Of a DNA stretch of 39,202 nucleotides, positions 4,982 through 36,774 are shown one piece after another. Under the pieces are notes generated by a model. The model searched no databases, was not told the DNA's origin, and was given only the letters and a program-made list of their open reading frames with translations. This DNA is from a candidate division WWE3 bacterium UBA1379 (lineage in GTDB: Bacteria > Patescibacteriota > WWE3 > UBA101185 > UBA10185). Both the position numbers and the translations under genes were made by a program. The stretch lies in assembly GCA_002305475.1 (NCBI GenBank), contig DBRB01000005.1, forward strand, positions 1-39,202, in the 5' to 3' direction. Position 1 is the first letter of the stretch. Each line of letters opens with the position of its first letter.

Positions 4982-5560
4982 GTGCCAAGGAAATATATTA
5001 TTAAAGTTTATAAACCTAATGCGTATTATCACATTTACAACAGAGGAGTTGAAAAAAGAGCAATATTCTTAACACCTGAAGATTACAAAAAATTTCTTCA
5101 TTTTCTGAAGGAATCAATAACGAGAACCGAAGTTTGCATGGTAAGCTACTGTTTGATGCATAACCACTATCACTTATTAGTATACCAACAAAATCCGCGC
5201 GACATCACAAAACTGATGAGATCTGTACGCACAAAATATTCTTCCAATTTTAACTATAAATATGATCGTGTCGGATGTCTCTTTCAAAGCAGTTACCGCG
5301 CGAGAATAATTAAATCCGAAGAAGATTTATTGGCTACTTCAGCCTATATTCACAACAACCCTTACAGGGATAAACCCGGGTCTATCCCTAAAAAATACCA
5401 GTACACCAGCCTGCCTGAATATTTAGGTACCAGAACAACAACATGGGTCAATACACAAAATATTATTTCCATTTTTAAGCAACATAATAGTGTTTTTTGG
5501 ATAAACGATTATCTGAAATACCACGAGGATAAAAGAAAAGAAAGGATGGATCTAGGTTGA
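4982..5560 (+). mobile_element. IS200/IS605-family (Y1 HUH) transposase, RAYT-like, with a GTG start
   Basis: 192 aa carrying the HUH motif region LMHNHYHLLVY and the downstream catalytic Tyr region SAYIHNNPYR, the architecture of Y1 transposases (Pfam Y1_Tnp). It lies between two tRNA genes. Confidence 0.7.
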
Positions 5561-6159: not shown

Positions 6160-6290
6160 GGTGCGTCAGGAATCAAGTTTATTTGCATTATTCAAACATA
6201 TTTATCATACATCTGTTGACATTTTGAAAACAAAGTGATAATTTGTCATCCTATAGTAACTGTGCTACACTCTGTCCTAGAAAGAAATAT

Positions 6291-7166
6291 ATGATTAGTT
6301 TAGAAACTGCGCGTAACAATTTTATAAAGCATCTGGAAAATCAAGGAAAATCCCATTCTACATTACTAGCATATGGAAAAGATATTGAACAACTTATATC
6401 TCACCTGGCTAAGAAGGGAGTAACTAATGTTAATGAAATTACCCTGGAGCATTTGGAAGATTTCATGAAAAAACTGGCTTCGGAGAGCTATACTAATAAA
6501 TCCATTTCCAGAAAAACCAACTCCACAAAGACTTTTTTTAGATTTCTGAAAGAAAAAGGACATATTGACACAAACGTTGCTGATTTATTAAAGCATCCTA
6601 AAGTCGATATCAAGGCTCCGAGAATTTTATCCAAATTAGAATACAGAGCATTGAGAGACGCAGCAAAAGAAGATCCTCGTACATCAGCCATTATCGAAGT
6701 ACTTCTGCAAACAGGAATTATGATTTCTGAACTGGCAGATATTAAGATGGAAGATCTTCACATGGATAAAGATTCTGGGACTCTTTTTATACCCGGAAAA
6801 CCGAATAAAGATTCCAGAACTATTCCTTTGAATAAAGCTGTTATCGAAGCTATAAGAAACTATATTGAAAAGGATCGTCCTAATGACAAGGATGCAAAGC
6901 ATCTATTTATCACAAAATCAGGAAAACCTCTTCTGATCAGAAATATAAGATCAACTATTGAAAGATACTATAAAGCAGCCGGTGTAGAAAATGCTAAGGT
7001 GAATGATTTGAGACATACATTTGTTGCATTTCATTTATCAAATGGAACAAACATTGTACAAGTTTCAAAGATAGCCGGTCATAAAAGAGTATCTACAACT
7101 GAAAGATATCTTCAATACATTGAAAGACCTTCCGGAGAAGAAAAAACGGAACTTGGTATTTTATAA
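6291..7166 (+). CDS. Tyrosine recombinase, XerC/XerD / phage-integrase family. The track ORF begins at TTG 6243; ATG 6291 (MISLETARNNF) is the more likely start.
   Basis: The N-terminal SAM-like domain and the C-terminal catalytic domain both match the family (TGIMISEL, IPGKPNKDSRT, NDLRHTFVAFHLSNG, GHKRVSTTERYL with the nucleophile Tyr). At the positions of conserved Arg-I and His-II the sequence has Met and Asn. A sigma70-like promoter sits upstream: TTGACA 6216-6221, TG-extended GATAAT 6236-6242. Confidence 0.8.
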   Translation: MISLETARNNFIKHLENQGKSHSTLLAYGKDIEQLISHLAKKGVTNVNEITLEHLEDFMKKLASESYTNKSISRKTNSTKTFFRFLKEKGHIDTNVADLLKHPKVDIKAPRILSKLEYRALRDAAKEDPRTSAIIEVLLQTGIMISELADIKMEDLHMDKDSGTLFIPGKPNKDSRTIPLNKAVIEAIRNYIEKDRPNDKDAKHLFITKSGKPLLIRNIRSTIERYYKAAGVENAKVNDLRHTFVAFHLSNGTNIVQVSKIAGHKRVSTTERYLQYIERPSGEEKTELGIL

Positions 7167-7645
7167 AATCACATAAAATAAACTACCCTATATGGATAGT
7201 CTGCCTTCTGTCCGGAGGTACGAGCTACCGTTATAATTTTACAGATCACTATTAGTTTTCTAGTGGTTTTATCCTTTGTACCTTGTCTTGGTTTTTTTCA
7301 ATTTATCTTATCTGTATCTGCCTTGTACTTTACTTGATAGCTAAGCACAGATAAGTTATTTTTCTTTGACATGTGAAGCCTACATATTAAATTGATATAT
7401 ATTAGTTTTTTTTGCTAATGCAAACAAATAAAGGACAAAAAGGTATCAATCTTTAACAAGTATTATTTATTCATTTCCGTCTGAGTATTTAACTTCTTTA
7501 GTATATATAAATAATTGTTAAGTATGTTTTCTTATTTACAATTGACTAGTATTTATTTAAATCCAAAATCAATTAGGAACAATCAAGAAGAACCACTATA
7601 TATAATGATAAAGGACAAGTTCAAAATCCCAAAATAGCGTATAAA

Positions 7646-7849
7646 ATGGCTAAAGAAGAAGATCCCTATCATAAGAAATCATTTTTCGGTTTAATAAAAC
7701 CAAGTGAAACTAAAGTAAAAGAAGGAGAGCGTGCAGCAGAAAAAGTTGGGGAAACACTAAACAAAGCTAATAATAGAACTCTAGCAGAACAAGCAGAAAT
7801 AAAGAAAGCTTCAGATACGAACCTAAACCACCGCATAGCTTTGATGTGA
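7646..7849 (+). CDS. Hypothetical small charged protein (67 aa); the coding call is uncertain
   Basis: ORF with ATG start whose stop overlaps the next start (ATGA). No recognisable domain. Confidence 0.3.
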   Translation: MAKEEDPYHKKSFFGLIKPSETKVKEGERAAEKVGETLNKANNRTLAEQAEIKKASDTNLNHRIALM

Positions 7850-8268
7850 AACAAGAAAATATAAATAATTACTCCGACGAAGCAAAAAGATTAGTCGAGT
7901 TAATACTTAATGAGTTGGAGAAACAAGGTTTGTCGGATCTACCGTATCAGAAAGAAATTTTGTTTGCAGAAATACATGGCTTCCCTAATCTCTCAAGCGA
8001 GGATGCCGAAATAAATGAAAATGGTCCTATGAGAAAATTCATATCTAGTACCTTAGTAGAACGGCTAACGGAACAAGGTATCAGCGTACATTTGCTAACT
8101 AACAGTTATAGTGAGAAGAGTGAGGTGGAACCTGGCAAAAATTTAGGAATTAGAGTATTTCAGGCTGTCGAAGAGGGGAGTTATGGTCCAGACTATCAGA
8201 AAAATACCTTTAGCTATCAGAGATCTAAAATCCAGATCTATTTCACAAGAAATACATTTGAGTACTAA
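7846..8268 (+). CDS. Hypothetical protein (140 aa)
   Basis: ORF overlapping the stop of the preceding ORF. No recognisable domain. Confidence 0.4.
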   Translation: MKQENINNYSDEAKRLVELILNELEKQGLSDLPYQKEILFAEIHGFPNLSSEDAEINENGPMRKFISSTLVERLTEQGISVHLLTNSYSEKSEVEPGKNLGIRVFQAVEEGSYGPDYQKNTFSYQRSKIQIYFTRNTFEY

Positions 8269-8299
8269 TTAATAAAGCATTTTGTTAAGAGTTAATTTT

Positions 8300-8375
8300 T
8301 GGTGGGTGTTCCTGGACTCGAACCAGGGACCGAGCGTGTATAAGACGCTTGCTCTACCAACTGAGCTAAACACCC
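8300..8375 (-). tRNA. tRNA-Ile (anticodon UAU) with encoded CCA
   Basis: The reverse complement GGGTGTTTAGCTCAGTTGGTAGAGCAAGCGTCTTATACACGCTCGGTCCCTGGTTCGAGTCCAGGAACACCCACCA folds as a canonical cloverleaf: anticodon stem AGCGT/ACGCT, loop CTTATAC giving U33 and anticodon T-A-T, T loop TTCGAGT. Confidence 0.8.
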
Positions 8376-8454
8376 ATATACCAATCAGCGTAGATCACAT
8401 TATACCTGCTTTCATTAAGATTTAAAGTATCAAATCAAAATAAACCAGATATGT

Positions 8455-8814
8455 TTAATTTTCTTCATCATCCGGATTAAATCGTTTTGCCTCCCTACGT
8501 TCTTCCCAGTCACTTGAAGCTGCAGCACCATATTTAGATTTGTTCACCTTACGCTCTAATTCTTCTACTGCAAGCACCAACGCTGTTTCCAAACTGTAAT
8601 TTGTTTCATCCGTAAAAAATTCTTCGCCGTCAATATCCAGATCTATCCTCACGGCAAACTGTTCTACGGGTGCTTTATTCATCACTACTCTTGCATACTT
8701 AGATCCCTCATCTACATTTTTAAATCGATGCTCCAGCTTAGAAATTTTCTCTTTTGCAAGTTCTTTCATACTTTCAGAAATATCCATGTTATCTGATTTA
8801 AATTGGTAGTTCAT
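8455..8814 (-). CDS. hpf: Ribosome hibernation promoting factor / ribosome-associated inhibitor (HPF/RaiA, S30AE family)
   Basis: 119 aa matching the S30AE family in size and pattern (ISESMKELAKEKISKLEH...VRIDLDIDGEEFF...ETALVLAVEELERKV). Confidence 0.7.
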   Translation of the reverse strand: MNYQFKSDNMDISESMKELAKEKISKLEHRFKNVDEGSKYARVVMNKAPVEQFAVRIDLDIDGEEFFTDETNYSLETALVLAVEELERKVNKSKYGAAASSDWEERREAKRFNPDDEEN

Positions 8815-8842
8815 TTAGGCTTCCTTTCTGACAAATTTCTAA

Positions 8843-9088
8843 TTACAGTTTCGGGAAGATCTGATTCCCTTCCTCATCATATAAAAATATCGCTGCTGTA
8901 GGGCAAGATTGCGCAGCCATTAACAATTCCTCATCGCTTCTTAATTCTGCATTAGGTTTTACCACAGCAATGTTTTCTCCGTCCAGTTCAAAAGCGTCAG
9001 GGGAGACTACTACACATGTTGCGGCACCTATACAGGCATCTCTTTTTACAACTACTTTCCAAATCTTTTTATTCTGTTTATCGGACAA
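8843..9088 (-). CDS. Small ferredoxin (single [4Fe-4S]/[3Fe-4S] type)
   Basis: 81 aa with CIGAATC...AAQSCPTAAI, matching the C-x2-x-x2-C...CP pattern of short bacterial ferredoxins. Confidence 0.8.
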   Translation of the reverse strand: MSDKQNKKIWKVVVKRDACIGAATCVVVSPDAFELDGENIAVVKPNAELRSDEELLMAAQSCPTAAIFLYDEEGNQIFPKL

Positions 9089-15718: not shown

Positions 15719-16024
15719 TTAGTATCTGTTTCCGCGATTAAAACCGCCTCCACCTCTGAAGTCTCGTCTGGGACGTTCTTCCATCGGTCTGGCAACAGAT
15801 ACGACTAATTTTCTACCGTCAACTTCTTTACCATTCATCTCGGATATTGCAGATTGAGCTGCTGAATCATCTTCGAATTCCACAAAACCAAAACCCTTGC
15901 TTCGTCCGCTATCTCTGTCGGAAATAATAGTTGCAGAAGCAACGTTTCCATAAGGAGCGAATAAATCAGTTAAACTGCCTTGGTTTACAGAATAAGGAAG
16001 ATTACCTACATATAACTTGGTCAA
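15719..16024 (-). CDS. RRM-type RNA-binding protein with glycine/arginine-rich tail
   Basis: 101 aa. RNP-2 LYVGNL and RNP-1 KGFGFVEF motifs; C-terminal RRDFRGGGGFNRGNRY. Confidence 0.85.
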   Translation of the reverse strand: MTKLYVGNLPYSVNQGSLTDLFAPYGNVASATIISDRDSGRSKGFGFVEFEDDSAAQSAISEMNGKEVDGRKLVVSVARPMEERPRRDFRGGGGFNRGNRY

Positions 16025-21290: not shown

Positions 21291-21884
21291 TTATTGATCG
21301 TTTTGGTAATATAAATGCAGTACCTTGTCTGCATACTGAAAACCTCGATCCATCGGACCGTATTTCTTTAATCCTTCTCGTTCACCATATTTCTTTATAA
21401 GATTCGCTAGAAACATCGTACCATAAGCAATATTTGTCTCCGGATCTTTAAGTGCCCTTACTGTCGGCCTGTCTTTAAACATATTTCCATATAGTTTTGC
21501 AGACAAACCGTCTGAAGCCATAATCTGCATCAAACCAACTGCACCGCTATGCGAAATTACAGTGGGTCTGCCACCGCTTTCTATAGTAATAACAGCGGCT
21601 ACTAGATCAGGATCCAAACCGTTAATCCTCGCGTGTTTAACAATCAGTTTTTCCCATTTCCTGACATTCCGAGGGTAATTTGGACTTATTCCACCAGTAA
21701 CTCCATCGGAAAAAGCACTGGCTTGAGCAACTTCACTAAAGAAATTAAAATCTATACCTGCATAATCCAAAAACAAGCCGCACGCTGACAACATAACAAT
21801 AGTTAATAACAGAGCCAAGCGAGGAACCTGTACCCATAGACGGGCGTAGGCACCAACCAGAAGAAAAGGAAGTTTTAATATCAT
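21291..21884 (-). CDS. Lytic transglycosylase (SLT domain, family 1)
   Basis: 197 aa. N-terminal TM/signal peptide; catalytic Glu in ITIESGG; AVGLMQIM motif; Y...AYN-like region. Confidence 0.85.
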   Translation of the reverse strand: MILKLPFLLVGAYARLWVQVPRLALLLTIVMLSACGLFLDYAGIDFNFFSEVAQASAFSDGVTGGISPNYPRNVRKWEKLIVKHARINGLDPDLVAAVITIESGGRPTVISHSGAVGLMQIMASDGLSAKLYGNMFKDRPTVRALKDPETNIAYGTMFLANLIKKYGEREGLKKYGPMDRGFQYADKVLHLYYQNDQ

Positions 21885-26074: not shown

Positions 26075-27883
26075 TTATTTAGTTACAAAATCATATAGTT
26101 TATTTCTGATTGATATATACCCAGGTGCCCGTAAATTAAAGACGGTTTTAAATTCTGCTCCGTCAATTCCGATTCTTCCGCGATTAGTGTTAAAGTAAAC
26201 CTTTGATGTATACCCACCATTACTAATTTCTACATCTACATCCGAATCTACACTGGTAAATTTACTTCCGTAGTCATCTGCTTTATCCGCCATAGCGTCA
26301 ATTGAATAAGGGTTTCCTCCCCAACAACTGGTAGTAACAGGTGATATCCTGTCTTTTTCTTTTGAGGATCCCTTACGCCAGACAACCCAAGCATTAAGAA
26401 TATCCGCCATTTCTTTTTCTGTAAGCCATGGATTGGAACGTCCGCAAGTGGATGAATTTACATTATATGTCTGGGTATACCATGCTTTAAAAAACCAGGG
26501 CGATTTTGCTTTCTTTTCATACGCATCATTAGGCCAGCTTCCTTTAGTATCCCAGCCAATATTATTAATATATCCTCCGGTTGTAGAAGAGTAGTAGGCT
26601 ACAACACTGCTATCCAATATTTTCTTATCAGTATCATCAACTGCTTCTTTCCAACGGGATGGGGGATCCTCACTTTTGGATTTAAGAAACACCTGACAGG
26701 ACTGGGAAGTACAGATACATTTGCCGTTTTTCTTGTAGCGGTATGCATACGATCTGGCGGCTATAGCCTGAGCTTTCAAAGCATTTTCCGGCCAATCGGC
26801 TGGCATCTCCGCTAAACCATATAAATACTTCTTCATGCTCATCGTCCCATAACCCTCAACGCAAATCTCATCAGCATCATCTTCCTCTTTTACACCAGAT
26901 TTATAATAAAATTTAAGGATGTCCTTGTAATTCTGACCGGCTTCGGCACGTCCTTTTGCACCGTATTGACTCATACCATTACCGTGTGTATATGCTCCGT
27001 AACTGGAAGCGGCGAATGCTGGACGGAATCCAGGATCCGGTAGTTTTTGTTCCGCTGCTTCATAATTACCCACAGTACCGTTCCCCTCACCGTATTTCTG
27101 AGAAAGAATACTTTGCTGTTTTGCAGTCAGTTCACTGATAGCCTGTGATAAATCTTCTAGCTCTTCTTCAAGATCCTCCTGCTGACTGGAAAGAACATTT
27201 AATTCCTTCTCCTGGCTGGCTTTCTGTGAATCCAGCTGCTGTTTTAATACCAGCATCTTATTATGGGAATCTTCCAGTTCGCTTTTTAAACTTTCAGCTT
27301 CGTTTTTATCTTTTTCGAAATTTGTAATTTCCTTATTAATCGCTCCTATTAAACTGATCGTTTCAGAGGTTAAGGTTTTCTCAAAAATATATGAATAAGT
27401 AGAAAATTGGAAACCATTCAGATCTTCCTCGATTTTTTCACTTGTATTTACAAAAGGAACGGAAGATAAAAACAATTCCAGATCATTAAGTACTCCCCGC
27501 TTGCTGAAATTTCTGATAATTTTGTTTCTGATATCAATTTTTTCCGTCAGATCTTTCCGTCTGTTTTCCAGATTAGTATTTATTTCAGCCAGCTGTTCCT
27601 CCATGTTTTTAATATCCGCCTGAAGTTCATTAACCTGTGCCTGGGTAACATTCAACTGAGAGGACAAGTCAGCAATTTTTTTTGAGACACCGTCAGCTTT
27701 AGAACGAATTTCTGATAGTTTTTTTGATGTAGATTGATATTCTTCCTCTTTTTTCTCCAGTTTTTCTTCAATTTTCTTTAATTCGTCGTCGGTATCATCA
27801 GCCAGCATCACAAAACTCATAGCAGGTAGGAAAAATGTTATTGTTATTAGTACGAGTATGAGCAGTCTACGCATTGTGGACAT
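26075..27883 (-). CDS. SpoIID/LytB-domain protein with N-terminal signal anchor and long coiled-coil
   Basis: 602 aa. Coiled-coil over residues ~30-250. Then KKYLYGLAEMPADWPENALKAQAIAARSYAYRYKKNG...CTSQSCQVF, which matches the SpoIID/LytB amidase-enhancer domain signature. Confidence 0.7.
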   Translation of the reverse strand: MSTMRRLLILVLITITFFLPAMSFVMLADDTDDELKKIEEKLEKKEEEYQSTSKKLSEIRSKADGVSKKIADLSSQLNVTQAQVNELQADIKNMEEQLAEINTNLENRRKDLTEKIDIRNKIIRNFSKRGVLNDLELFLSSVPFVNTSEKIEEDLNGFQFSTYSYIFEKTLTSETISLIGAINKEITNFEKDKNEAESLKSELEDSHNKMLVLKQQLDSQKASQEKELNVLSSQQEDLEEELEDLSQAISELTAKQQSILSQKYGEGNGTVGNYEAAEQKLPDPGFRPAFAASSYGAYTHGNGMSQYGAKGRAEAGQNYKDILKFYYKSGVKEEDDADEICVEGYGTMSMKKYLYGLAEMPADWPENALKAQAIAARSYAYRYKKNGKCICTSQSCQVFLKSKSEDPPSRWKEAVDDTDKKILDSSVVAYYSSTTGGYINNIGWDTKGSWPNDAYEKKAKSPWFFKAWYTQTYNVNSSTCGRSNPWLTEKEMADILNAWVVWRKGSSKEKDRISPVTTSCWGGNPYSIDAMADKADDYGSKFTSVDSDVDVEISNGGYTSKVYFNTNRGRIGIDGAEFKTVFNLRAPGYISIRNKLYDFVTK

Positions 27884-27986
27884 AAATTAATTATAACATC
27901 TCATTGTTACAGGCAAATAAATTAAGAAAAGTTCCCACTTTCCGCAAATAAGTTGACTCTGCGGATAGTTAAGGACAATAATAGTG

Positions 27987-28516
27987 TAATGGTCCTTAAT
28001 AAAATAATTATTCCCTTAAAGTTTTGTAATTTTCTCTTTTGGGTATTAATTATTGTTTCACTTTATAACAAGCAAGCATATGCTGTTGAATATGCACCAT
28101 GTCAGCCTAATTCTTCCCACTGCACCTTAGTAGATGATCTAATCGGCTCACATTATGATTGTGCATGTGACGTATTTTGCGATCCCGGAGAAAAATGTGA
28201 AAAAAGAATGGGTATAGGTGCGAGTGGGTACTGGTGTCGGGAATCAAGCCTTTGTGTGGATCCAAATCCTGCTTATACAGACTGTACCTACGGGGAAATC
28301 GAAACATGCGGAAACAGTATATTGAACTCTTCCTGTGCAGATAATGAAAGATGTTTGTCACCTGCAAACACTGGCCCCGGCGGAAGCAGCAGACCTCAAT
28401 GTGTTCCTGATACTTCCTGTGTAAATGATCCAGGTGTCTGTGCAAATTTACCGGGGGCAGGTGCATATTGGCAACCTCTTGCACAGCAAACAATCCCCAA
28501 CAACTGGATTGTTTAA
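27987..28516 (+). CDS. N-terminal fragment of Cys-rich hairpin-anchored protein A (signal peptide plus Cys-rich region). The track ORF begins at TTG 27953; ATG 27987 gives a clean signal peptide.
   Basis: MVLNKIIIPLKFCNFLFWVLIIVSLYNKQAYA | VEYAPCQPNSSHC..., with 22 Cys in the mature part. It ends at TAA 28514-28516, while the downstream part of the same gene continues in another frame. Confidence 0.6.
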
Positions 28517-29460
28517 ACGGAACTGTATGCTGTACTTCTAATGAAAACGACTGCAATAGCATGGGTGGGATCTGTGACACCTCCTGTGGTGGCACGGGAG
28601 TTATACCCACCGGTATCTGCGGTCCAGGATCATTAGGCCAGTTATGTTGCAGACAAGAACCTGCTAAAGCCTGTGAAGTTTCGGTAGCTGCAGGAGGCCT
28701 TGGAGGTGAATGTGTAACAGCGGGTGCCTGTGGATCAGCACCCTTAACACCTGCTTCCGGATGTCTGTTTACCGAGGAATGCTGTCCTACTTCATCTACC
28801 CAAACATGCGAGGATGCGGGGGGTGTTGTTGTAAGACACGCAGGATGTGATACCCCTATAGAAGGTGTCGTTACACCTATTGGAGCATTATGCTGCAATC
28901 CCACTACCCTTCCAAAATGTAATGAAATACCTGGAGGTGGGTTTTGTACGTTTTTGCATTGTGATGTTACTCCGGTTGCTTCTTCGGATTGTGCGGCACC
29001 TAACATCTGTTGTCCAAACACACAGCGATTCTGTGAGGTTGGTAATGCGGGGGGACAACCATCATTCGGAGGTGTATGCAACGGGACACCTTGTACTACC
29101 GTTACACAAGCAAGAGAATGCTCCGTGTGTTGTCTTAATTCAGATGCGATACCTCCTCCTGACGGAAATGATGATGATCCCAGAGGTCCTACTTACACAT
29201 CCGAATACACAGGTCCAAAAATTACAGTTAATCAGCTAATAGGACTAATATACGATATAATGCTTCCAATAAGCATTGGGGTAGGATTGTTATTTATCAT
29301 AAAAGCAGGTTATGTTTTAAAAACTTCTGAAGGTAATCCTACTAAAAAACAGCAAGGTATTGATGATTTAACCGGCGCGGTGGTAGGTACATTATTTGTT
29401 GGTCTATCCTTAGTAATTTTGAGAGTAATCATTAATTCTATTTTGGGTGGCAATATTTAA
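28468..29460 (+). CDS. C-terminal fragment of Cys-rich protein A: Cys-repeat ectodomain plus the conserved C-terminal two-helix hydrophobic hairpin
   Basis: This frame is open from 28429, with no signal peptide of its own. Its Cys-rich repeats match the architecture of the intact paralog B. The last ~90 aa are near-identical to the C-terminus of B and homologous to the three small downstream proteins. Confidence 0.6.
   Translation: MATSCTANNPQQLDCLNGTVCCTSNENDCNSMGGICDTSCGGTGVIPTGICGPGSLGQLCCRQEPAKACEVSVAAGGLGGECVTAGACGSAPLTPASGCLFTEECCPTSSTQTCEDAGGVVVRHAGCDTPIEGVVTPIGALCCNPTTLPKCNEIPGGGFCTFLHCDVTPVASSDCAAPNICCPNTQRFCEVGNAGGQPSFGGVCNGTPCTTVTQARECSVCCLNSDAIPPPDGNDDDPRGPTYTSEYTGPKITVNQLIGLIYDIMLPISIGVGLLFIIKAGYVLKTSEGNPTKKQQGIDDLTGAVVGTLFVGLSLVILRVIINSILGGNI
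29245..29402 (+). repeat. 158-bp block perfectly identical to 30750..30907 (3' hairpin-module coding region shared by genes A and B). The surrounding ~260 bp are ~85-90% identical.
   Basis: Direct comparison of the two gene 3' ends. The block from CTAATATACGATATAATGC through ACATTATTTGTTGG is identical base for base. Confidence 0.85.
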
Positions 29461-29608
29461 TTATCTCTCATTTTTTAACTCAATCATAGTGGATCCGAAT
29501 AGTTACAGCGAACCATCTTCTTAAATAGATATCAACGCATCATATATACTTGACTATCAATTTGTTTACCCGTCATAATCCTATTACAAAAGTTTCTAGC
29601 AACATTAT

Positions 29609-30968
29609 TATGAAAAATATTAATAAAATTTTATTATTCTTCCTGTTTCTTTTTGTCGGCTTTCTTTTTTATACCGGTAAAGTATACGCAGACTGGTGTA
29701 CGGAACCTAGATATGCTGCTTTAGGAGCTCGATGTGTGTCTATGGCAGGATCTACGGAATTTAGATGTCCGGACGGTTTTAGCACTTATCCAGATCCTAA
29801 TGTAGTTTGCCCGGTTGATGGGGTTGAAATCTGCTGTGTACCAAACACCAGGATGTGTTTAAACAATAGTAGCAACAGCTGCCATAATACATCCTGCCCT
29901 GCAGGCTATGTTCCATCACAACCAGGTAATTTATTATGTCCGATTAACGGTCAGGTTTGTTGTACACCACAGCAAGCTCCAAACCCAGAGCAATGTCCTA
30001 CAGGTAATGGAGTATGTCTACCTAATTGTAATGTAACAGGATACACAAATGATCCGCAAAGAAGATCCTGCACAATTAACAATACAGAGTGTTGTATTAG
30101 AACAAATACCGGAAGTTGTCCGGCACCCCCAAATGGATTTTGTTTTAGCGGTACTTGCAGTGGAGGAACCGTACCGGATCCTCAAAACAGATTATGTTCT
30201 ACACCAGGAAATGTATGTTGTCTTCCAGCGAGTACTTCAACACAATGTCCGGCTTCTCCTGAAGGTTATTGTTTTTCAGGTGCATGTGCCGGGGGGACAG
30301 TACCGGATCCACAGGGAAGACAATGCTCAACCAGTGGACAAACCTGCTGTGTACCAGATCCAAGCGATGCCTGTCCTGCACCTCCAGACGGGTTTTGTTA
30401 CGATGGATTATGTCCGGGCGGTTTGATGCTGGATAGTAGATCATGTCCTAATGCAAGTCAGAATTGCTGTGTGGAGGAAGAAATTGTTATTCCTCCTACA
30501 GAATGTACCCCTAACGCAACAGTATGTGATATACAAATTGTAAATGGGGTAGTAGTTAGTGCGTGGTGCCCCTGCGGTGAATCTGGCTGCGGTACAAATA
30601 CCAGATGTGTAAAAGGAGTCGGAGATACATTCTTTTGCCAAAACGATACGATTGCTTGTATAGCTGAAGACGACCCGTTAGACCCAGATGATTCAACGTA
30701 CGAATCAGAATACACAGGACCGATAATCACAGTAAATGAGCTGATTTCTCTAATATACGATATAATGCTTCCAATAAGCATTGGGGTAGGATTGTTATTT
30801 ATCATAAAAGCAGGTTATGTTTTAAAAACTTCTGAAGGTAATCCTACTAAAAAACAGCAAGGTATTGATGATTTAACCGGCGCGGTGGTAGGTACATTAT
30901 TTGTTGGATTGTCATTAGTGATTTTAAGAATTATAATTAATTCAATCTTAGGTGGTAACATAACTTAA
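29609..30968 (+). CDS. Cys-rich secreted protein B: signal peptide, ~38-aa six-Cys tandem repeats, C-terminal VirB2/TrbC-like two-helix hairpin. ATG 29609 is the likely start; the track TTG 29550 lies inside the promoter.
   Basis: Signal peptide MKNINKILLFFLFLFVGFLFYTGKVYA | DW. About 60 Cys in repeats of the form CPAPPxGFCFSGxCxGGTVPDPQxRxCSTxGxxCC(V/L)P. C-terminus ...IYDIMLPISIGVGLLFIIKAGYVLKTSEGNPTKKQQGIDDLTGAVVGTLFVGLSLVILRIIINSILGGNIT. Promoter TTGACT(29550-29555)-N17-TCATAAT. Confidence 0.75.
30117..30476 (+). repeat. Three tandem ~126-129-bp coding repeats, each a ~38-aa six-Cys unit, within gene B
   Basis: The units start at 30117, 30246 and 30372. Each encodes CP(A)(P/S)PxG(F/Y)C(F/Y)xGxCxGG...(R)xC...CC(L/V)(P/E). 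Confidence 0.75.
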
Positions 30969-31013
30969 AGTCTAAACCTGACTTTGAATATTATTTAAAA
31001 GGAGGTGTAATCT

Positions 31014-31376
31014 ATGAACTTACAATTAATACAGGATGTTTATGCAGGACCTGGTGTAGGTACAACAGTATCCAGCTCATTAACAACTGACTTCACTGAT
31101 ATCGGTGACCTGGCTGGTTTTGTAATCAATATTATTCTTGGTATAGGTTGGGCTTTAACCTTTATCATGCTTGCCGGTGGTTTTATCAGATACATCACAT
31201 CAAGAGGTGAAACCAAGGCTACGGATTCTGCACGAAACTGGCTGACATATGCCGCTTTAGGAGGGGTTGGTTTGTTCTTCTTAACTGTTATTAAAAATAT
31301 AATACTGTCACTATTAACTGGTAATACAAGCAGACCTCAGGAAATTGACGAACAATTTGACCCGTTTGCCAACTAA
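31014..31376 (+). CDS. Small two-helix hairpin protein P1 (VirB2/TrbC-pilin-like topology), candidate major subunit
   Basis: 120 aa. Hydrophobic helix (FVINIILGIGWALTFIMLAGGFIRYI), loop TSRGETKATDSARNW, second helix. Homologous to the C-termini of A and B. Strong SD AAAGGAGGTG 13 nt upstream, and a hairpin terminator downstream. Confidence 0.7.
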   Translation: MNLQLIQDVYAGPGVGTTVSSSLTTDFTDIGDLAGFVINIILGIGWALTFIMLAGGFIRYITSRGETKATDSARNWLTYAALGGVGLFFLTVIKNIILSLLTGNTSRPQEIDEQFDPFAN

Positions 31377-31398
31377 CTTCGCTGAAATTGTACAGTGT

Positions 31399-31430
31399 AA
31401 AACCCCGGTTAATTCCGGGGTTTAGCATTT
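31399..31430 (+). terminator. Intrinsic terminator/attenuator after P1
   Basis: Perfect 8-bp stem AACCCCGG(31401-31408)/CCGGGGTT(31415-31422), loop TTAATT, followed by TAGCATTTGTAT. Confidence 0.6.
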
Positions 31431-31488
31431 GTATGACCTTGCTTCACAAATAATTGCTTTATACAAACGTCTTGCCATATAATACCTA

Positions 31489-31795
31489 TATGTTTGACTA
31501 CATCCCTTTCTCACAAGATCCAAGCGGAGGAAATGTAACGACTATCGGAGATGTGTTAGGTATGTCAATAAATATCATGATGGGAATTGTTTTTGCTTTG
31601 GGTTTTATATCGCTAGCAGCGGGGTTTGTTATATTTGTTACCAGCAGAGGAAATCCTGATGGTACTGCACGTGCAGGAAAAGCCGTATTATACGGTGCAG
31701 GTGCAGTGGCACTATCTCTGCTCGTCCTTGTAATTAAAGAAATTATCTTCAAGGCAATAGGTGTTGAAGGTGTAGACACCGTGCCGGCTATTTAG
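31489..31795 (+). CDS. Small two-helix hairpin protein P2, paralog of P1. The track ORF begins at TTG 31454; ATG 31489 is likelier.
   Basis: MFDYIPFSQDPSGGNVTTIGDVLGMSINIMMGIVFALGFISLAAGFVIFVTSRGNPDGTARAGKAVLYGAGAVALSLLVLVIKEIIF..., collinear with P1 and with the A/B C-termini. A TATAAT-like box lies ~6 nt upstream of the ATG, suggesting a possible leaderless transcript. Confidence 0.65.
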
Positions 31796-31804
31796 AATAA
31801 ATAT

Positions 31805-32233
31805 ATGTTAAAGGTATTAAGATCAGTATTAATATTTACTCTATTAATAACAGCTTTCAATGTGTTTTCAGAACCTGCATATGCCGTAAACTGCACCCCT
31901 CTTTCGGATGAAGCACCCGGACCACAGGATATAATCTGCCCTGTTATAAGAATTGTGAATATCGCTTTGCTTTCTTCCGGAGCGGTATTAATTCTGATGC
32001 TTTTATGGGGCGGTGTTAAATTAGCGCTGGCAATCGGAGATCCAAAAGCCATGCAGGCTGCATCAGCAACATGGACTTGGGCTATCATAGGATTTGCTGT
32101 AGTAATCGGCGGTGCTACTTTATTGAAAATAGTAGCGGGCTGGTTCGGATGGGAAGCAGACTTTCTTAATCCCTTTGATACACTTCAACAAAAAATACAG
32201 GAATTTATGTCGCTTTTGCATATTGAAGGTTAA
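31805..32233 (+). CDS. VirB2/TrbC-like pilin-type protein P3 (signal peptide plus two hydrophobic helices)
   Basis: 142 aa. Signal peptide MLKVLRSVLIFTLLITAFNVFSEPAYA | VNC. Mature part with two Cys, helix 1 AVLILMLLWGGVKLALAIGDPK, loop, helix 2 WAIIGFAVVIGGATLLKIVAGWFGW. This layout resembles Agrobacterium VirB2. Confidence 0.65.
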   Translation: MLKVLRSVLIFTLLITAFNVFSEPAYAVNCTPLSDEAPGPQDIICPVIRIVNIALLSSGAVLILMLLWGGVKLALAIGDPKAMQAASATWTWAIIGFAVVIGGATLLKIVAGWFGWEADFLNPFDTLQQKIQEFMSLLHIEG

Positions 32234-33525
32234 TATTCTATTAAATACGCGCCACCTAAAGTAAATGTATTGATTAAACTATTCCCTGAGTAGTAAACAT
32301 CTGAAACTTTTCCTTGTAACTCAACATTAAAACTATAACTTCTTGAAATTCCTGTTTCTAGATCTATCACTATTATATCTAAGGTACGTGTTTGTGGATT
32401 TATACCACTAAACGATACAACTTTATCTTGTATAAATGCGGGAACTAGCTCTGTTAATGGAATATTTTTGTTGAAAATATTTACAGATGTTCTTGTATTA
32501 TTAGTGAGATTATATATTACCCAGTTATTACCATTAAAATATAGTATGTCCTCTCTTGATGGATTTGTTTTTATATATGATAGCGGAGATGTATCGATGT
32601 TCTTTTTATCCCAACTGAATGTAGTTTTTTCCAAAGATGATATTATATAGTATTCATTACCTAGATTACCCACATCACTAGGCTGTTCAATAACCACGAT
32701 TTTATTCTGATTTCCTAGTACCGCTTTATATAATCCTGCTAATATTTCCGTGGATAATTCGGTTGTTACTCCTGTGTCGGTATCATATATTGAAAGCGTT
32801 GATGTTGCATTCAGAAAATTTATATTTGTTTGGTATAGCAGTTGTTTTAATTGAGGATTATAATCCTGAACCCAACCTTTTATTGAAAGTTCCCGCAATA
32901 CAGGTGTACTTTTCGACTGCCATGGTGAGAGATCCAAAGAAAATATCCTTAGATTATCCAACTGTTCTCCTGTTGTAACATAAGCCTTCTGTGCATCTAT
33001 CCATAGCAGATCACGCACTCTTGGCAATTGCTCTCTTAACAACGCAAAATAATCTTCACCTGTATTAATCTCCACTATCCTGGTCTGGTTATTATAGTAA
33101 ACTAAATAAGGTTTAAGCGTATCCGGGTATAAGAACGATGTATAATTAATCCCGATTGTATCTTTATATAATTCATTAGTAGTAGGTGCTCTTTTTAATG
33201 AATAGGAAACCTGTCCCGTTTTAATTATATCCGAGGTAATTACCTGACCTTCAATCCAAAAACCATTTAATTTGAGCTGGATAAAATCTCCATCGACAAG
33301 CCCTAATGATGCAGGGGTTGTTTGTCCCGAGTATTTATCATTAATAAATATCTGTGCTCCCGTCGGCTCGGATATTATCATCAACGTACCCTGACTCTTT
33401 TCACTAGTACCAGTAGACACATTTCGATCAAATGCGGGGTTTGTACTGACGTTCCTGAAAAAATAACCGATCAAAAAAACCACGAAAAGGATTAATATTA
33501 ATATTATTATTTGTTTCTTTTTCAT
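32230..33525 (-). CDS. Membrane-anchored extracytoplasmic protein with PEGA domain and a beta-rich (propeller-like) region
   Basis: 431 aa. N-terminal TM anchor MKKKQIIILILILFVVFLIGYFF. PEGA-like TLMIISEPTGAQIFINDKYSGQTTPASLGLVDGDF. Then ~330 aa rich in beta-strand-type repeats. Its stop shares the TTAA with the stop of P3 (convergent). Confidence 0.55.
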   Translation of the reverse strand: MKKKQIIILILILFVVFLIGYFFRNVSTNPAFDRNVSTGTSEKSQGTLMIISEPTGAQIFINDKYSGQTTPASLGLVDGDFIQLKLNGFWIEGQVITSDIIKTGQVSYSLKRAPTTNELYKDTIGINYTSFLYPDTLKPYLVYYNNQTRIVEINTGEDYFALLREQLPRVRDLLWIDAQKAYVTTGEQLDNLRIFSLDLSPWQSKSTPVLRELSIKGWVQDYNPQLKQLLYQTNINFLNATSTLSIYDTDTGVTTELSTEILAGLYKAVLGNQNKIVVIEQPSDVGNLGNEYYIISSLEKTTFSWDKKNIDTSPLSYIKTNPSREDILYFNGNNWVIYNLTNNTRTSVNIFNKNIPLTELVPAFIQDKVVSFSGINPQTRTLDIIVIDLETGISRSYSFNVELQGKVSDVYYSGNSLINTFTLGGAYLIEY

Positions 33526-33537
33526 ATCTTTATTAAA

Positions 33538-36500
33538 CTATGGACGACATGCCTCATTCCAAATTTCTCCCATTGCACGCCAATCAGTAAAACATGCAAG
33601 TGCACCAGAAGACCATCTTGATATTAAATCAACAACGCTTACACCTGCAACATCATGACTGTTTTGAAAGTTTCCGGTCTGGCTTCCTGCAAAGTGAGTA
33701 TGAGGGTGTGTACCTAAAGTATGACAACTTCCAGAACAATCAGAATGACCAAGTGTTGTTCCCGCTGCAACAGGTATACACCCCTCTGGCGATGGTCTGC
33801 CCGTAATTGTTGTATCCATCATATGAGTAAAGTATAAAGAAGGGCAAGGAGATGTAATTTCATCATTCCAGTCTCCAGAAGGATCCGTGGGATATAAATA
33901 AACAGAAACACCGCCTGTAGGATCCATTTCAGGAAAGGCACACCCGTCAAACGGAGCTACCACAGGCTGACCCTCGCATTGGTATACATCTGAGATACCT
34001 TCCGTACTACTATGGGTGCAACTATAACCTAATAATCCAGGGAACGGATTTCTACCCGGACAATTTGTACCATCACCAAATCTACCTCGTGGAGGAGCAG
34101 ATCCGGAACCGGGAGGTACAACAACCGGTAGTTCATCTCCTACACATTCACCGGAAACACATTGAAGAGAACAACATATAGAAGAATCTGAACAGGATTC
34201 CCCGGTATGTCGGCAGTCTGCTCTTGGCATACCAGCCATTTGATATCCAGTACTACTTCTTGTTGTGTCTATAGGTGGGAAGGTGATAAGAGATGAACCG
34301 AAAAACATAAAGGAGATAATCATGATAATAAAAAAAGGAAAAGCTGTTATATATAAAATCATCTTAACACCAGTGGTCACGAGTTTATCCAAGTCTTTAA
34401 AGAATGTGGAGAGCTCCCCTTTAAATATAGCCTTGAGAAATGCTTCTGTTTTATTGATAACCAGATTTGTTACAAACTTTACAACCGGAGTAATTACTTT
34501 ATCTATTATCGGGGCAAGTACAGAACCAGCACCTGAAGTACTTCCAGCAAGTAATGCCAGAAGAGCTGTTCTAATAGCTCTCGCCACTGCAGTAGATATT
34601 GCATCTTTAACCTGAAACAAAGGAGCGACATATTTACCTATTCTCTTAAAAACTTCTGTCTGAATCTGATTTGCCAAGGATGATAATTTCTGCAGATGAC
34701 CAACCCGATCCCAAGTAATATTTATATAATCAGTGCTTCTTATCCTTTTTCCTAAACCCTGCATCAATTCCGTTAATATTCTTCCATTTTCAGCTGTGTT
34801 TTCAAGATAGTTCCCATTAAAAGACAAACCCAACCTTTGCTGATTTTCTTTAAGCCATCTCAAGAATTTTTCGTTATTTTCGACCAAATCCGTGAATTCC
34901 TTTTCGCCAACCTTCAACCCTTTAACAACCGATATATCTCCGTTGAGAAAGCGGATCATTGAATTACCGCTATCATTAAAACCGACGAGAGCGCCGGTAT
35001 TCTTATCCAACACTGCATTCAAACGGCCTAAAGTTTTGTTTGCAGCATCGTGATCCGATAAAATTCCATGTAGAGTAACCGCACCCTTAAAATGTTTACC
35101 GCCAGCTACCTTCACTCTACCCACCCCCGAGATATCTACAGAAAAGGTGTTTCTCGCTGTAAATGCTTTTGTGCTTGAACCGGCAAAATCCGGATCATAC
35201 ACTAAACCTAAGTAATGTGATCTTTGTAATGTGGCTTTAACTGCCTGAGAAGGATACAAACCGTCAAGATAGGGTCTGATTTTTCCTTGCCATACATAAA
35301 CTTTAAACAGCCTTCCCTTTTCAATATTTGATAAAAAGTCCGCAAAGTCATTCTTCTCATACATAGGGTTGGCTGCCATCAGAAGCCTTCGAACATTTTC
35401 TATGCCGGAATACTGATCAACCTGGGAATTAGTATGTGAGGCTGTTTTTGTAAAGACATCGCGTAGGGTATCCCCACTATTTGGGGTAAACATACTACCA
35501 CCCTGCATCAAATATCTACCGGTAGTCTTATTCAGCAAATCGTGTTGAATGCCCTTTATGGCACCGGGTTGCGTTATACTACTTGCCAAAGTATCAAGAC
35601 GACCTTTTAGTACACCGGCCGATAGTATGCCTACCGAGCCTGAAGACTGTGCCTCTACAGCCAGATTATGAATATCTTCAACTTTCCTTCTAAATGAACT
35701 CATTACCAGGTTGTAATTCTGTTTCTGAATAGGATTAAGGTTTGCAGGTATTACTGTATCAATATCATTAAGCGCATCGCTGGCAACTTTTTGCAAGGTC
35801 TTCATTGAATTCTGAATGGTCAACCCCGCTTTTTCCCCGCCGACTACAATTTTTCCTAGGTTTTCCTGAACACCAAAAATACCTTCTTTTTTAGTAAAAT
35901 TACTTATTCTTTGTACGGCTTTTGTACCGGCAAGAAAATCCTCTATAGCAGCAATTTCATCAACTGATAAACCGGTTACATTATTTCGGAAATTTTCTAC
36001 TTCAGTAGCAACGGCATCCAAAGCACTTAAACGAAGTTCGTTATAATCCCTGTTTCTGGACGAAGTGGCCTCAACACCAACGGTAAATTTCAGGAAAGAT
36101 TGACCAACTTTGGAATAGACATCTGTGGGTATTTTCTCCTTAACAATATCGTAAGTACCGGGGGAAGTTTCCCTTACCATGTTAACTTCAGTGTCTCCCG
36201 GTTTCATCACCCTCAAACCCTGCATCTGATAAGGATTTGGTTCCGTGGTAGGTGTAATACCTAATGTATGTTTGGCATACTCTTCTGCAGGCCTGAAAAA
36301 AGGAGACTGACCTTCCGGTGCTAAATTATCCCGCCCCGCTAAAACAGGCTCCCAGAAATACTTCTGTTCAATGTAGTTTCTGAAGTCTTTCCAGTCAAAA
36401 GTGGATTTAACCCATTGTTCTATAGTTGATTTAAATTGTCCTTCGGGATCTTTTGACCAATCCCCCGGATTGATAGATACCTGAAGCTGAACGCCGGGAG

Positions 36501-36774
36501 TATCATCAATATCCCCGAATTCTAAAGCCCTCTGGGGATCATATGACTGATAACCGGCTTTTTTAGGGGTAGCTGATAATTTAAACTGGGTTTTTATATC
36601 CTCAATAACCGCGTTCTTTACTGCTGCAGGCAATTTTCCAAAGTCAATATCCTTAAATACATTCTCAATCCAGTTTGCTAATACATCAAAGGTATATTCC
36701 TCCGGAGGAGGAACTGCACCTTTTCTGGGCGGTCGGGGTATGGGTTGTCCGGGATAATATCCAACGCGCGGCAT
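33538..36774 (-). CDS. Giant membrane protein (1078 aa): large N-terminal domain of unknown function, TM segment(s), C-terminal Cys-rich ectodomain with a knottin-like six-Cys framework and M23/LytM-like motifs
   Basis: No signal peptide and no P-loop. Hydrophobic segment KMILYITAFPFFIIMIISFMFFGSSLI. It is followed by CRHTGESCSDSSICCSLQCVSGEC (C-x6-C-x5-CC-x3-C-x4-C), then FTHMMD (HxxxD), then CHTLGTHPHTHF (HxH). Confidence 0.6.
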   Translation of the reverse strand: MPRVGYYPGQPIPRPPRKGAVPPPEEYTFDVLANWIENVFKDIDFGKLPAAVKNAVIEDIKTQFKLSATPKKAGYQSYDPQRALEFGDIDDTPGVQLQVSINPGDWSKDPEGQFKSTIEQWVKSTFDWKDFRNYIEQKYFWEPVLAGRDNLAPEGQSPFFRPAEEYAKHTLGITPTTEPNPYQMQGLRVMKPGDTEVNMVRETSPGTYDIVKEKIPTDVYSKVGQSFLKFTVGVEATSSRNRDYNELRLSALDAVATEVENFRNNVTGLSVDEIAAIEDFLAGTKAVQRISNFTKKEGIFGVQENLGKIVVGGEKAGLTIQNSMKTLQKVASDALNDIDTVIPANLNPIQKQNYNLVMSSFRRKVEDIHNLAVEAQSSGSVGILSAGVLKGRLDTLASSITQPGAIKGIQHDLLNKTTGRYLMQGGSMFTPNSGDTLRDVFTKTASHTNSQVDQYSGIENVRRLLMAANPMYEKNDFADFLSNIEKGRLFKVYVWQGKIRPYLDGLYPSQAVKATLQRSHYLGLVYDPDFAGSSTKAFTARNTFSVDISGVGRVKVAGGKHFKGAVTLHGILSDHDAANKTLGRLNAVLDKNTGALVGFNDSGNSMIRFLNGDISVVKGLKVGEKEFTDLVENNEKFLRWLKENQQRLGLSFNGNYLENTAENGRILTELMQGLGKRIRSTDYINITWDRVGHLQKLSSLANQIQTEVFKRIGKYVAPLFQVKDAISTAVARAIRTALLALLAGSTSGAGSVLAPIIDKVITPVVKFVTNLVINKTEAFLKAIFKGELSTFFKDLDKLVTTGVKMILYITAFPFFIIMIISFMFFGSSLITFPPIDTTRSSTGYQMAGMPRADCRHTGESCSDSSICCSLQCVSGECVGDELPVVVPPGSGSAPPRGRFGDGTNCPGRNPFPGLLGYSCTHSSTEGISDVYQCEGQPVVAPFDGCAFPEMDPTGGVSVYLYPTDPSGDWNDEITSPCPSLYFTHMMDTTITGRPSPEGCIPVAAGTTLGHSDCSGSCHTLGTHPHTHFAGSQTGNFQNSHDVAGVSVVDLISRWSSGALACFTDWRAMGEIWNEACRP

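Follow-up and report, generated by a model that had tools for sequence, protein, structure and literature searches.

A short identical tract in two diverged, tandem pilin-like genes of a WWE3-related bacterium, best explained by recent gene conversion

The subject of this analysis is a pair of tandem genes, here called A and B, in a window of 39,202 nucleotides (the whole stretch of DNA analysed, contig DBRB01000005.1), which, judging from sequence, is chromosomal DNA of a bacterium related to candidate division WWE3 of the candidate phyla radiation (CPR, Patescibacteria). Both genes are predicted tandem members of the Pfam T4SS_pilin family (PF18895, VirB2-like), and they share a block of 158 bases that is identical base for base inside coding sequences otherwise clearly diverged. 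This block is best explained as a recent gene-conversion tract within the constant C-terminal module of the two genes, a reading that we regard as probable. The mechanism behind such a block is already well known, and the tract homogenises the constant part of the proteins and does not swap their variable N-terminal tips.

Silent divergence inside and outside the shared block

The block is maximal, being bounded by mismatches at 29244 and 29403 (numbering of the gene A copy), and it sits in the most conserved part of the pilin family module. The alignable region of the two genes extends from 29191 to 29457 in A and from 30696 to 30962 in B, at an offset of 1505, and contains 30 differences in 267 nucleotides (nt), all of which fall in the 109 bases flanking the block, leaving these flanks 72.5% identical. 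Beyond this region, identity at the same offset drops to 13-43% per 30-nt window, no more than expected at random, and blastn detected no further similarity between A and B and none elsewhere in the window. At the protein level, the two modules are ~94-95% identical around a 100% identical DNA core, and BLASTP with composition correction aligns only the C-terminal 96-99 residues of the two products. Thus, the first-pass annotation was right about the 158-base identity and about the divergence of the upstream, ectodomain-coding parts, but its estimate of ~85-90% identity for the flanks was too high, as 89% holds only for the whole 266-nt direct repeat reported by the repeat finder (29191-29456 and 30696-30961).

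Chance is excluded: with 30 differences over 267 sites, a stretch of 158 bases free of differences has a probability of at most 1.5e-11 (union bound), and the probability that all 52 codons of the block would be identical under a silent saturation like that of the flanks is 10^-22.5. The contrast is carried by the third positions, of which 22 of 36 differ in the 37 flank codons, compared to 0 of ~52 in the block. Following Nei and Gojobori, the proportion of changed silent sites (pS) is 0.82 in the flanks (23/28 silent sites), with a nonsynonymous proportion (pN) of 0.084, and in the block none of 36.7 silent sites has changed. Where A and B encode the same residue in the flanks, 12 of 32 codons are the same, for a random expectation of 11.3 under the codon usage of the window, and this sharing equals the level seen between species; since codon sharing is at the random expectation, the 72.5% identity that the flanks retain can be attributed entirely to conservation of the protein.

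Because silent divergence is zero in the block and saturated in the flanks, the tract would have been copied between the genes and would be far younger than the sequence around it. Most flank changes are synonymous, which excludes rapid adaptive evolution of the flanks as the cause of the contrast. Recent recombination between the copies, as the first-pass annotation had proposed, is therefore the best reading of a silent divergence that passes from saturation to zero at both edges.

Regarding the origin of the pair, the flanks of A and B share 32 of 37 amino acids (86%), compared to 57-59% with the best outsider, and identity so far above that to any other protein identifies A and B as true paralogs. 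The same contrast indicates that their duplication postdates the split from all sampled relatives, and it would be specific to the lineage of the window, because every related locus examined carries a single large pilin gene. The duplication is nonetheless old enough for silent saturation.

In the proposed sequence of events, an old duplication would have yielded the tandem paralogs, and the shared module outside the block would have reached silent saturation. A recent non-reciprocal homologous recombination (ectopic gene conversion) would then have copied ~158 bp from one gene into the other, in either direction, erasing every silent difference from helix 1 through the loop into the beginning of helix 2. 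The copying may have been mediated by RecA-type conversion or by a template switch, the two genes lying 1.5 kb apart, and identical anchors may be tolerated or even favoured because both proteins would have to fit the same assembly machinery or filament.

Several points weigh against gene conversion as described. The closest relatives reach only 57-59% amino-acid identity in the module and none has two copies, and the flanks are short, with 37 codons only. Before conversion, the modules were probably 70-80% identical, a poor substrate on which to initiate RecA-type recombination. In addition, the assembler may have smoothed a few real differences in the block, and the frameshifted gene A may be a decaying pseudogene, in which case the selective argument for identical anchors would be void.

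Ectopic gene conversion between bacterial paralogs, as a form of concerted evolution, is known from tufA and tufB of Salmonella. As in that pair, A and B are paralogs in one genome with an identity tract set within an older divergence, in the most conserved coding segment and with no dedicated machinery. They differ from tufA/tufB in being homogenised over ~158 bp of a shared module of 270 bp, with more than 1 kb per gene unalignable, and in being tandem partners 1.5 kb apart in an uncultivated CPR bacterium. The block alone is then a textbook conversion tract, which provides a clean, dated marker of homologous recombination inside a CPR pilin array and suggests that the two-helix anchor evolves in concert.

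Alternative origins of the identity

It is unlikely that the second gene, or part of its module, came from an outside strain, with crossovers inside the module and the two copies sharing a recent common source. In the relatives, alleles are often replaced with a breakpoint where the constant module begins, two large tandem genes were seen in none of the other sampled lineages, and silent-saturated flanks would fit modules derived from long-separated lineages. However, such an origin needs two breakpoints within a 270-bp module and a donor whose centre was identical to that of the resident gene, so that copying over 1.5 kb is simpler. Moreover, the flanks of A and B, at 86% amino-acid identity, are nearer to each other than to any of the about 15 billion proteins of the public collection that was compared. 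As seen by blastn, the spacer between A and B is unlike both the region upstream of A and the region downstream of B, and B is consequently no simple captured allele with its native flanks.

An artefact of assembly or polishing, in which a graph bubble was collapsed or the alleles of coexisting strains were joined in this metagenome-assembled genome, is less likely still. The locus is strain-polymorphic in the relatives, where contigs ending ~35-135 nt from the gene show the difficulty it poses to assemblers, and bubble popping could wipe out a few real differences in a near-identical repeat. Yet bubble popping needs shared k-mers on both sides and could polish 98-99% identity to 100%, not ~73%, and the codon-sharp switch from zero to saturated silent divergence is typical of a recombination tract. 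Concatenation of two alleles by the assembler, for its part, predicts that the upstream region of B resembles that of A and the downstream region of A that of B; neither is seen, and it was rejected on this indirect ground, as the spacer matches neither of the regions outside the pair.

Programmed variation, with A and B as pilE/pilS-like or shufflon-like cassettes and the block as their recombination site, is quite improbable. The architecture of a variable tip on a constant anchor would suit such a system, one gene of the two is out of frame at a G run, and the 158-bp direct repeat could drive deletion or amplification of the 1505-bp unit. Nevertheless, the window has no more than two copies and a search of public proteins yielded no other near-identical module, and both copies possess their own start codon, signal peptide and promoter-like site. 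The homology between them is confined to the 3' part, so tips could not be exchanged by double crossover, the repeats are direct and not inverted, and the sole tyrosine recombinase of the window is Xer-like and lies 21 kb off. The inverted repeats found in 27000-33000 measure 20-24 nt with 73-86% complementarity, which is chance level, and no motif of four runs of three or more G occurs on either strand of 27501-31200.

The systems that inspire this alternative differ from the locus in these same features. In Neisseria, a single expressed gene, pilE, is accompanied by many silent, promoterless and 5'-truncated pilS copies, from which variable segments are transferred with the requirement of a guanine-quadruplex (G4) element, and the pilus belongs to the type IV class. 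The A/B locus is similar in the conversion between pilin gene copies, with conserved segments supplying the homology, but it has no silent promoterless copies, no transfer of variable segments and no G4 element, and its pilin class is different. Meanwhile, the R64 shufflon, where the Rci recombinase inverts segments between short inverted sfx repeats and thereby varies the C-terminus, also joins alternative adhesin parts to a constant pilin part, whereas the repeats of A and B are direct, no recombinase is adjacent and the variable part is N-terminal.

A shufflon was thus rejected because of the direct repeats and the lack of an adjacent recombinase, and a pilE/pilS-like system because of two copies that each have a promoter-like site, the absence of 5' homology and the absence of a G4 motif. 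A diversity-generating retroelement was rejected as well, as no reverse-transcriptase family turned up in the scanned open reading frames (ORFs), the core has no differences and substitutions in the flanks are not biased towards adenine. Consequently, the likeness to pilin antigenic variation or to shufflon and cassette systems drawn in the first-pass annotation is not borne out, there being two copies with start codon, signal peptide and promoter-like site in direct orientation, no 5' homology, no recombinase nearby and no G4 motif. Its idea of a variable tip on a constant anchor stands as an architecture of the whole family, but fails for variation of the tip by the tract, which lies in the constant module.

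The last alternative, also raised at first pass, is a constraint at the nucleotide level, with an RNA or DNA element embedded in both genes forbidding silent changes, and it is very improbable: the identity itself and nothing else speaks for it, while four relatives (L001, L002, L003 and L006) keep the block peptide but share only 11-39% of its codons, their orthologous segments thus being free at silent sites, the nucleotide identity of the segment between lineages is no higher than in neighbouring genes, RNA folding energies of the block fall within the range of shuffled controls on both strands (z of -0.76 and -1.18, not significant), Rfam gives no match in the block (its sole match being a sub-threshold isrJ outside it) and a consensus scan found no promoter-like or terminator-like site inside it.

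Replaced tips and shared anchors in relatives

Relatives of the constant module were collected by an exhaustive profile-free search, which gave 1354 cluster representatives at E up to 0.001, with details taken from the best 150 of them. By comparison, word-indexed protein searches returned only 2 matches and 1 match, exact look-ups of gene B and P0001 in a contig index gave no match (P0035 was likewise absent), species-representative genomes scanned with the C-terminal module contained no relative, and a metagenome scan with the module gave 17 loci, none closer than 58%. Among the family members scanned, 39 of 41 match PF18895 and the other 2 match TrbC/VirB2. In nearly all of the best 150 the module is C-terminal, within a total length of mostly 75-662 residues, and the N-terminal parts of the family are cysteine-rich and very unlike in length and sequence. 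These 150 also include eight pairs, A/B among them, whose anchors are at least 90% identical and whose ectodomains have no significant similarity. One further locus was examined and is single-copy. Every related locus recovered has one large pilin gene beside the SpoIID gene, followed by three small ones, and the tandem pair of large genes is so far unique to this window among the sampled loci.

The first-pass annotation had advised looking for swapped tip domains in related genomes, and such swaps were found in three contig pairs from different samples: at the shared locus, the members of each pair have a common anchor but different ectodomains. L029 and L030 are 97% identical over 4200 nt upstream to the start codon and 96.5% identical over the last 284 nt, which is the constant module plus slightly beyond, and the ~1070 nt in between are unalignable. 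Likewise, the flanks of L024 and L025 are 97% and 99% identical and their ectodomain region cannot be aligned, and L026 compared to L027-L028 repeats the pattern at a greater distance. In these allele pairs, the upstream homology spans the SpoIID gene and reaches the pilin start codon, and the replacement takes in the signal peptide and the ectodomain, with breakpoints where the gene begins and where the constant module begins. This strain-to-strain exchange of tips looks like ordinary homologous recombination anchored upstream and in the constant module.

Two ectodomain classes are common to two lineages (L024/L025 and L026/L027, proteins P0008, P0010, P0013 and P0015) and are 38-40% identical across them, whereas the anchors group by lineage, being 100% identical in one allele pair and 92% in the other, compared to 80-84% between lineages. 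This resembles trans-lineage polymorphism or cassette transfer. Metagenome contigs of the relatives often end ~35-135 nt from the pilin gene, as L024 (1583 nt) and L031 (1060 nt) do; L029 ends 66 nt past the gene and L030 ends 36 nt past it. Such contig ends would be the expected effect of a strain-level ectodomain polymorphism on the assembly graph.

The locus and its relatives, taken together, describe a first WWE3 array gene bearing a large, modular, cysteine-rich putative surface domain that is replaced wholesale between strains with 96-99% identical flanks, which suggests that an exposed structure is under strong diversifying or balancing selection. A broader and tentative proposal, which we rate as possible but rather doubtful, is that the constant module serves recombination as a portable anchor. 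This module and the conserved gene upstream would jointly let WWE3/CPR populations swap ancient, lineage-shared classes of cysteine-rich ectodomains, two of which would occasionally be stacked in tandem, and homogenisation of the anchor would keep the tips compatible with one assembly machine. If so, the window would display the intragenomic side of this exchange process, and, provided that the proteins form or decorate a host-contact filament, recombination of this kind would act as a determinant of host range, or of evasion of immunity or phages, in these ultrasmall episymbionts. In any case, the locus offers a concrete target for the question of how episymbionts recognise their partners.

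Among polymerising surface proteins, flagellin combines conserved terminal core domains with a hypervariable, recombining and exposed middle domain. The A/B family is comparable in its conserved polymerising part and in a surface part that differs between close strains and is exchanged by recombination anchored in conserved parts; it belongs to another family and topology, though, with an N-terminal variable part and a C-terminal membrane hairpin as the constant part, and its filament is only putative. In solved pili of the VirB2/TraA type, the termini face outward, and by analogy the N-terminal domains of A/B-type proteins would decorate the outside of any filament.

Closer parallels are found among VirB2-like genes. 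As described by Quinonero-Coronel et al. (2025, PMC12102498), VirB2-like arrays of Patescibacteria comprise 2-11 genes, with an amino-acid identity within arrays of 25% on average and 54% at most, and their paralogs are sequence-divergent but structurally alike, a role in host adaptation being proposed for them. Such arrays are widespread in Patescibacteria, and in Southlakia epibionticum, so far the only member of the group to be tested, a six-gene pilin array is essential (reviewed in PMC12857230). The present locus is like these arrays in having several tandem T4SS_pilin/VirB2 genes in a CPR genome, but differs from those surveyed in the 94-95% identity of the A and B modules and in first genes with cysteine-rich ectodomains of 350-400 residues.

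Anaplasma phagocytophilum, in turn, has strain-variable clusters of virB2 paralogs with N-terminal hypervariable stretches (PMC3556328), and the trwL arrays of Bartonella have been named as a parallel (PMC12102498). The tandem amplification, the diversity near the exposed N-terminal part, the conservation of two hydrophobic helices and the strain-variable copy number and sequence are common to the Anaplasma genes and to the A/B family. However, the Anaplasma proteins are small, consisting of a signal peptide and two helices with short hypervariable stretches, whereas the variable part of the A/B family is large, modular and replaced whole. A literature search found no description of a near-identical core shared by two array members, of large cysteine-rich ectodomains on VirB2-like pilins or of allelic replacement of ectodomains between near-identical strains.

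Organisation of the genes and their neighbourhood

Table 1. Coordinates of the pilin-like genes, the shared block and associated features in the window.
Feature	Position	Strand	Remarks
Identical block, copy 1	29245..29402	+	Helix 1, polar loop and first third of helix 2 (LIYDIMLPISIGVGLLFIIKAGYVLKTSEGNPTKKQQGIDDLTGAVVGTLFVG); putative conversion tract
Identical block, copy 2	30750..30907	+	Base-for-base comparison
Gene A, constant C-terminal module (T4SS_pilin two-helix hairpin)	29191..29460	+	Only part alignable with gene B
Gene B, constant C-terminal module	30696..30968	+	Alone 30.0 bits against PF18895 (cut-off 26.6)
Promoter-like site TTGACT-18-AATAAT	27953..27982	+	Consensus match only (10/12); just 5' of the gene A start codon (27989)
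Gene A, 5' reading frame	27989..28516	+	Signal peptide and first cysteine-rich part; from ORF list and translations; stop due to frame break
Five-G run, likely one-base frame break in gene A	28453..28457	+	Reconstruction without stop codons
Gene A, 3' reading frame, 330 residues	28468..29460	+	Public record P0001; six CC-ending cysteine-rich modules, then the C-terminal pilin module
Promoter-like site TTGACT-18-CATAAT in the A-B spacer	29550..29579	+	Consensus match (10/12); 5' of the gene B start codon
Gene B, 452 residues	29610..30968	+	Signal peptide, six CC-ending modules, distal cysteine-rich part, pilin module
SpoIID-domain protein with coiled-coil N-terminus	26075..27883	-	Pfam PF08486, E 2.3e-18
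Small pilin-like gene 1, 120 residues	31014..31376	+	PF18895, E 5e-5; synteny conserved
Small pilin-like gene 2, 113 residues	31454..31795	+	Weak NCBIfam match to a pilin-like conjugal transfer protein, E 0.003
Small pilin-like gene 3, 142 residues	31805..32233	+	PF18895, 30.3 bits, above cut-off

Both A and B consist of a signal peptide, about 350-400 cysteine-rich residues and a C-terminal module of about 90 residues (Table 1), and the N-terminus is hydrophobic over residues 1-27. Their ectodomains contain six modules of ~40 residues ending in CC, followed by further cysteine-rich sequence, with 44-49 cysteines in all, and the spacing of the module is roughly C-x7-8-C-x4-5-C-x9-12-C-x5-6-CC (29610-30700 and 28468-29190). 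The same module is clearly present four times in protein P0005, and it matches no Pfam family. Tandem Repeats Finder detected no repeats at the DNA level in these modular ectodomains, and NCBIfam gave no match for A or B. AlphaFold2 modelled full-length B, from an alignment of 12 sequences, with a predicted local distance difference test (pLDDT) score of 49.5, and the model of the ectodomain was not used.

At full length, A and B score 24.8 and 24.7 bits against PF18895, just under the cut-off of 26.6. Two helices are predicted in the gene B product at residues 375-407 and 412-447 with a short polar loop between them, and AlphaFold2 models the module as a helical hairpin with a pLDDT of 86.7, which would be compatible with the solved VirB2/TraA-type pilin fold. 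A Foldseek search of the PDB with this module model gave no match at E<1, an archaeal conjugation pilus appearing at rank 49 with E 5.5, and a profile search of PDB sequences found no pilin.

The frame break of gene A maps between about 28426 and 28514, and adding one G to the five-G run restores a continuous protein of 490 residues, in which the cysteine spacing at the junction matches the module pattern seen elsewhere in A and B. The shift may stem from a sequencing error, mark a gene that became a pseudogene very recently or reflect a phase-variable tract. Programmed -1 frameshifting was also considered, but the site is not a canonical slippery heptamer and it was left as a one-base indel. 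Other G or C runs of five or six bases in the two genes are G6 at 28818, 29049 and 30291 and C5 at 30126.

As regards annotation, the public gene calls shorten gene B to its last 180 residues (P0004), the ORF with the signal peptide encoding 452, and the homolog in L025 (about 7503-8954) is likewise called as 317 residues in a frame that is open for 483. Surveys relying on such shortened calls would miss the ectodomains.

Genes A and B open an array of five consecutive VirB2-like (Pfam T4SS_pilin) genes at 27989-32233, with the SpoIID gene as left neighbour, a position that this gene keeps in all relatives (synteny in L001-L003, L006 and L025-L030). Small gene 2 has the same two-helix layout as the rest of the array, and the relatives carry syntenic small genes. 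The SpoIID-domain protein shares 55-65% identity with proteins from genome bins of candidate division WWE3, which places the bacterium as a relative of this CPR lineage.

Among the ORFs of 100 residues or more in the 39-kb window, none matched the VirB4, VirB6 or VirD4 families, and these families were likewise not found within 8-10 kb of the pilin locus in the relatives. The lack of a virB4 neighbourhood does not exclude membership in PF18895, because in the 2025 survey pilin genes lay near virB4 in only 1135 of 1948 assemblies (PMC12102498).

A lytic transglycosylase with an SLT domain lies at 21291-21884 (-), upstream of the pilin array like the SpoIID protein, and these two cell-wall-remodelling enzymes could have a VirB1-like role. 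On the other side of the array, 33538-36774 (-) encodes a protein of 1078 residues that matches nothing in Pfam or NCBIfam, carries a hydrophobic segment around residue 800 and is rich in cysteine in its C-terminal part, and in the relatives its position beside the pilin array is occupied by proteins of 1001-1344 residues; it is possibly part of the pilin apparatus.

The remaining window is housekeeping in nature, including FtsH, TrpRS/TyrRS-type and LeuRS synthetases, the Suf system, ribosomal protein L25 and SmpB. An IS200-like Y1 transposase (4982-5560, +) lies near the Xer-like tyrosine recombinase (6243-7166, +), with a DivIC-like gene between them on the opposite strand, and both, 21 kb off, appear unrelated to the pilin genes. 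In addition, a protein of 101 residues encoded at 15719-16024 (-) has a strong match to the RNA-recognition motif (RRM_1, E 3e-25).

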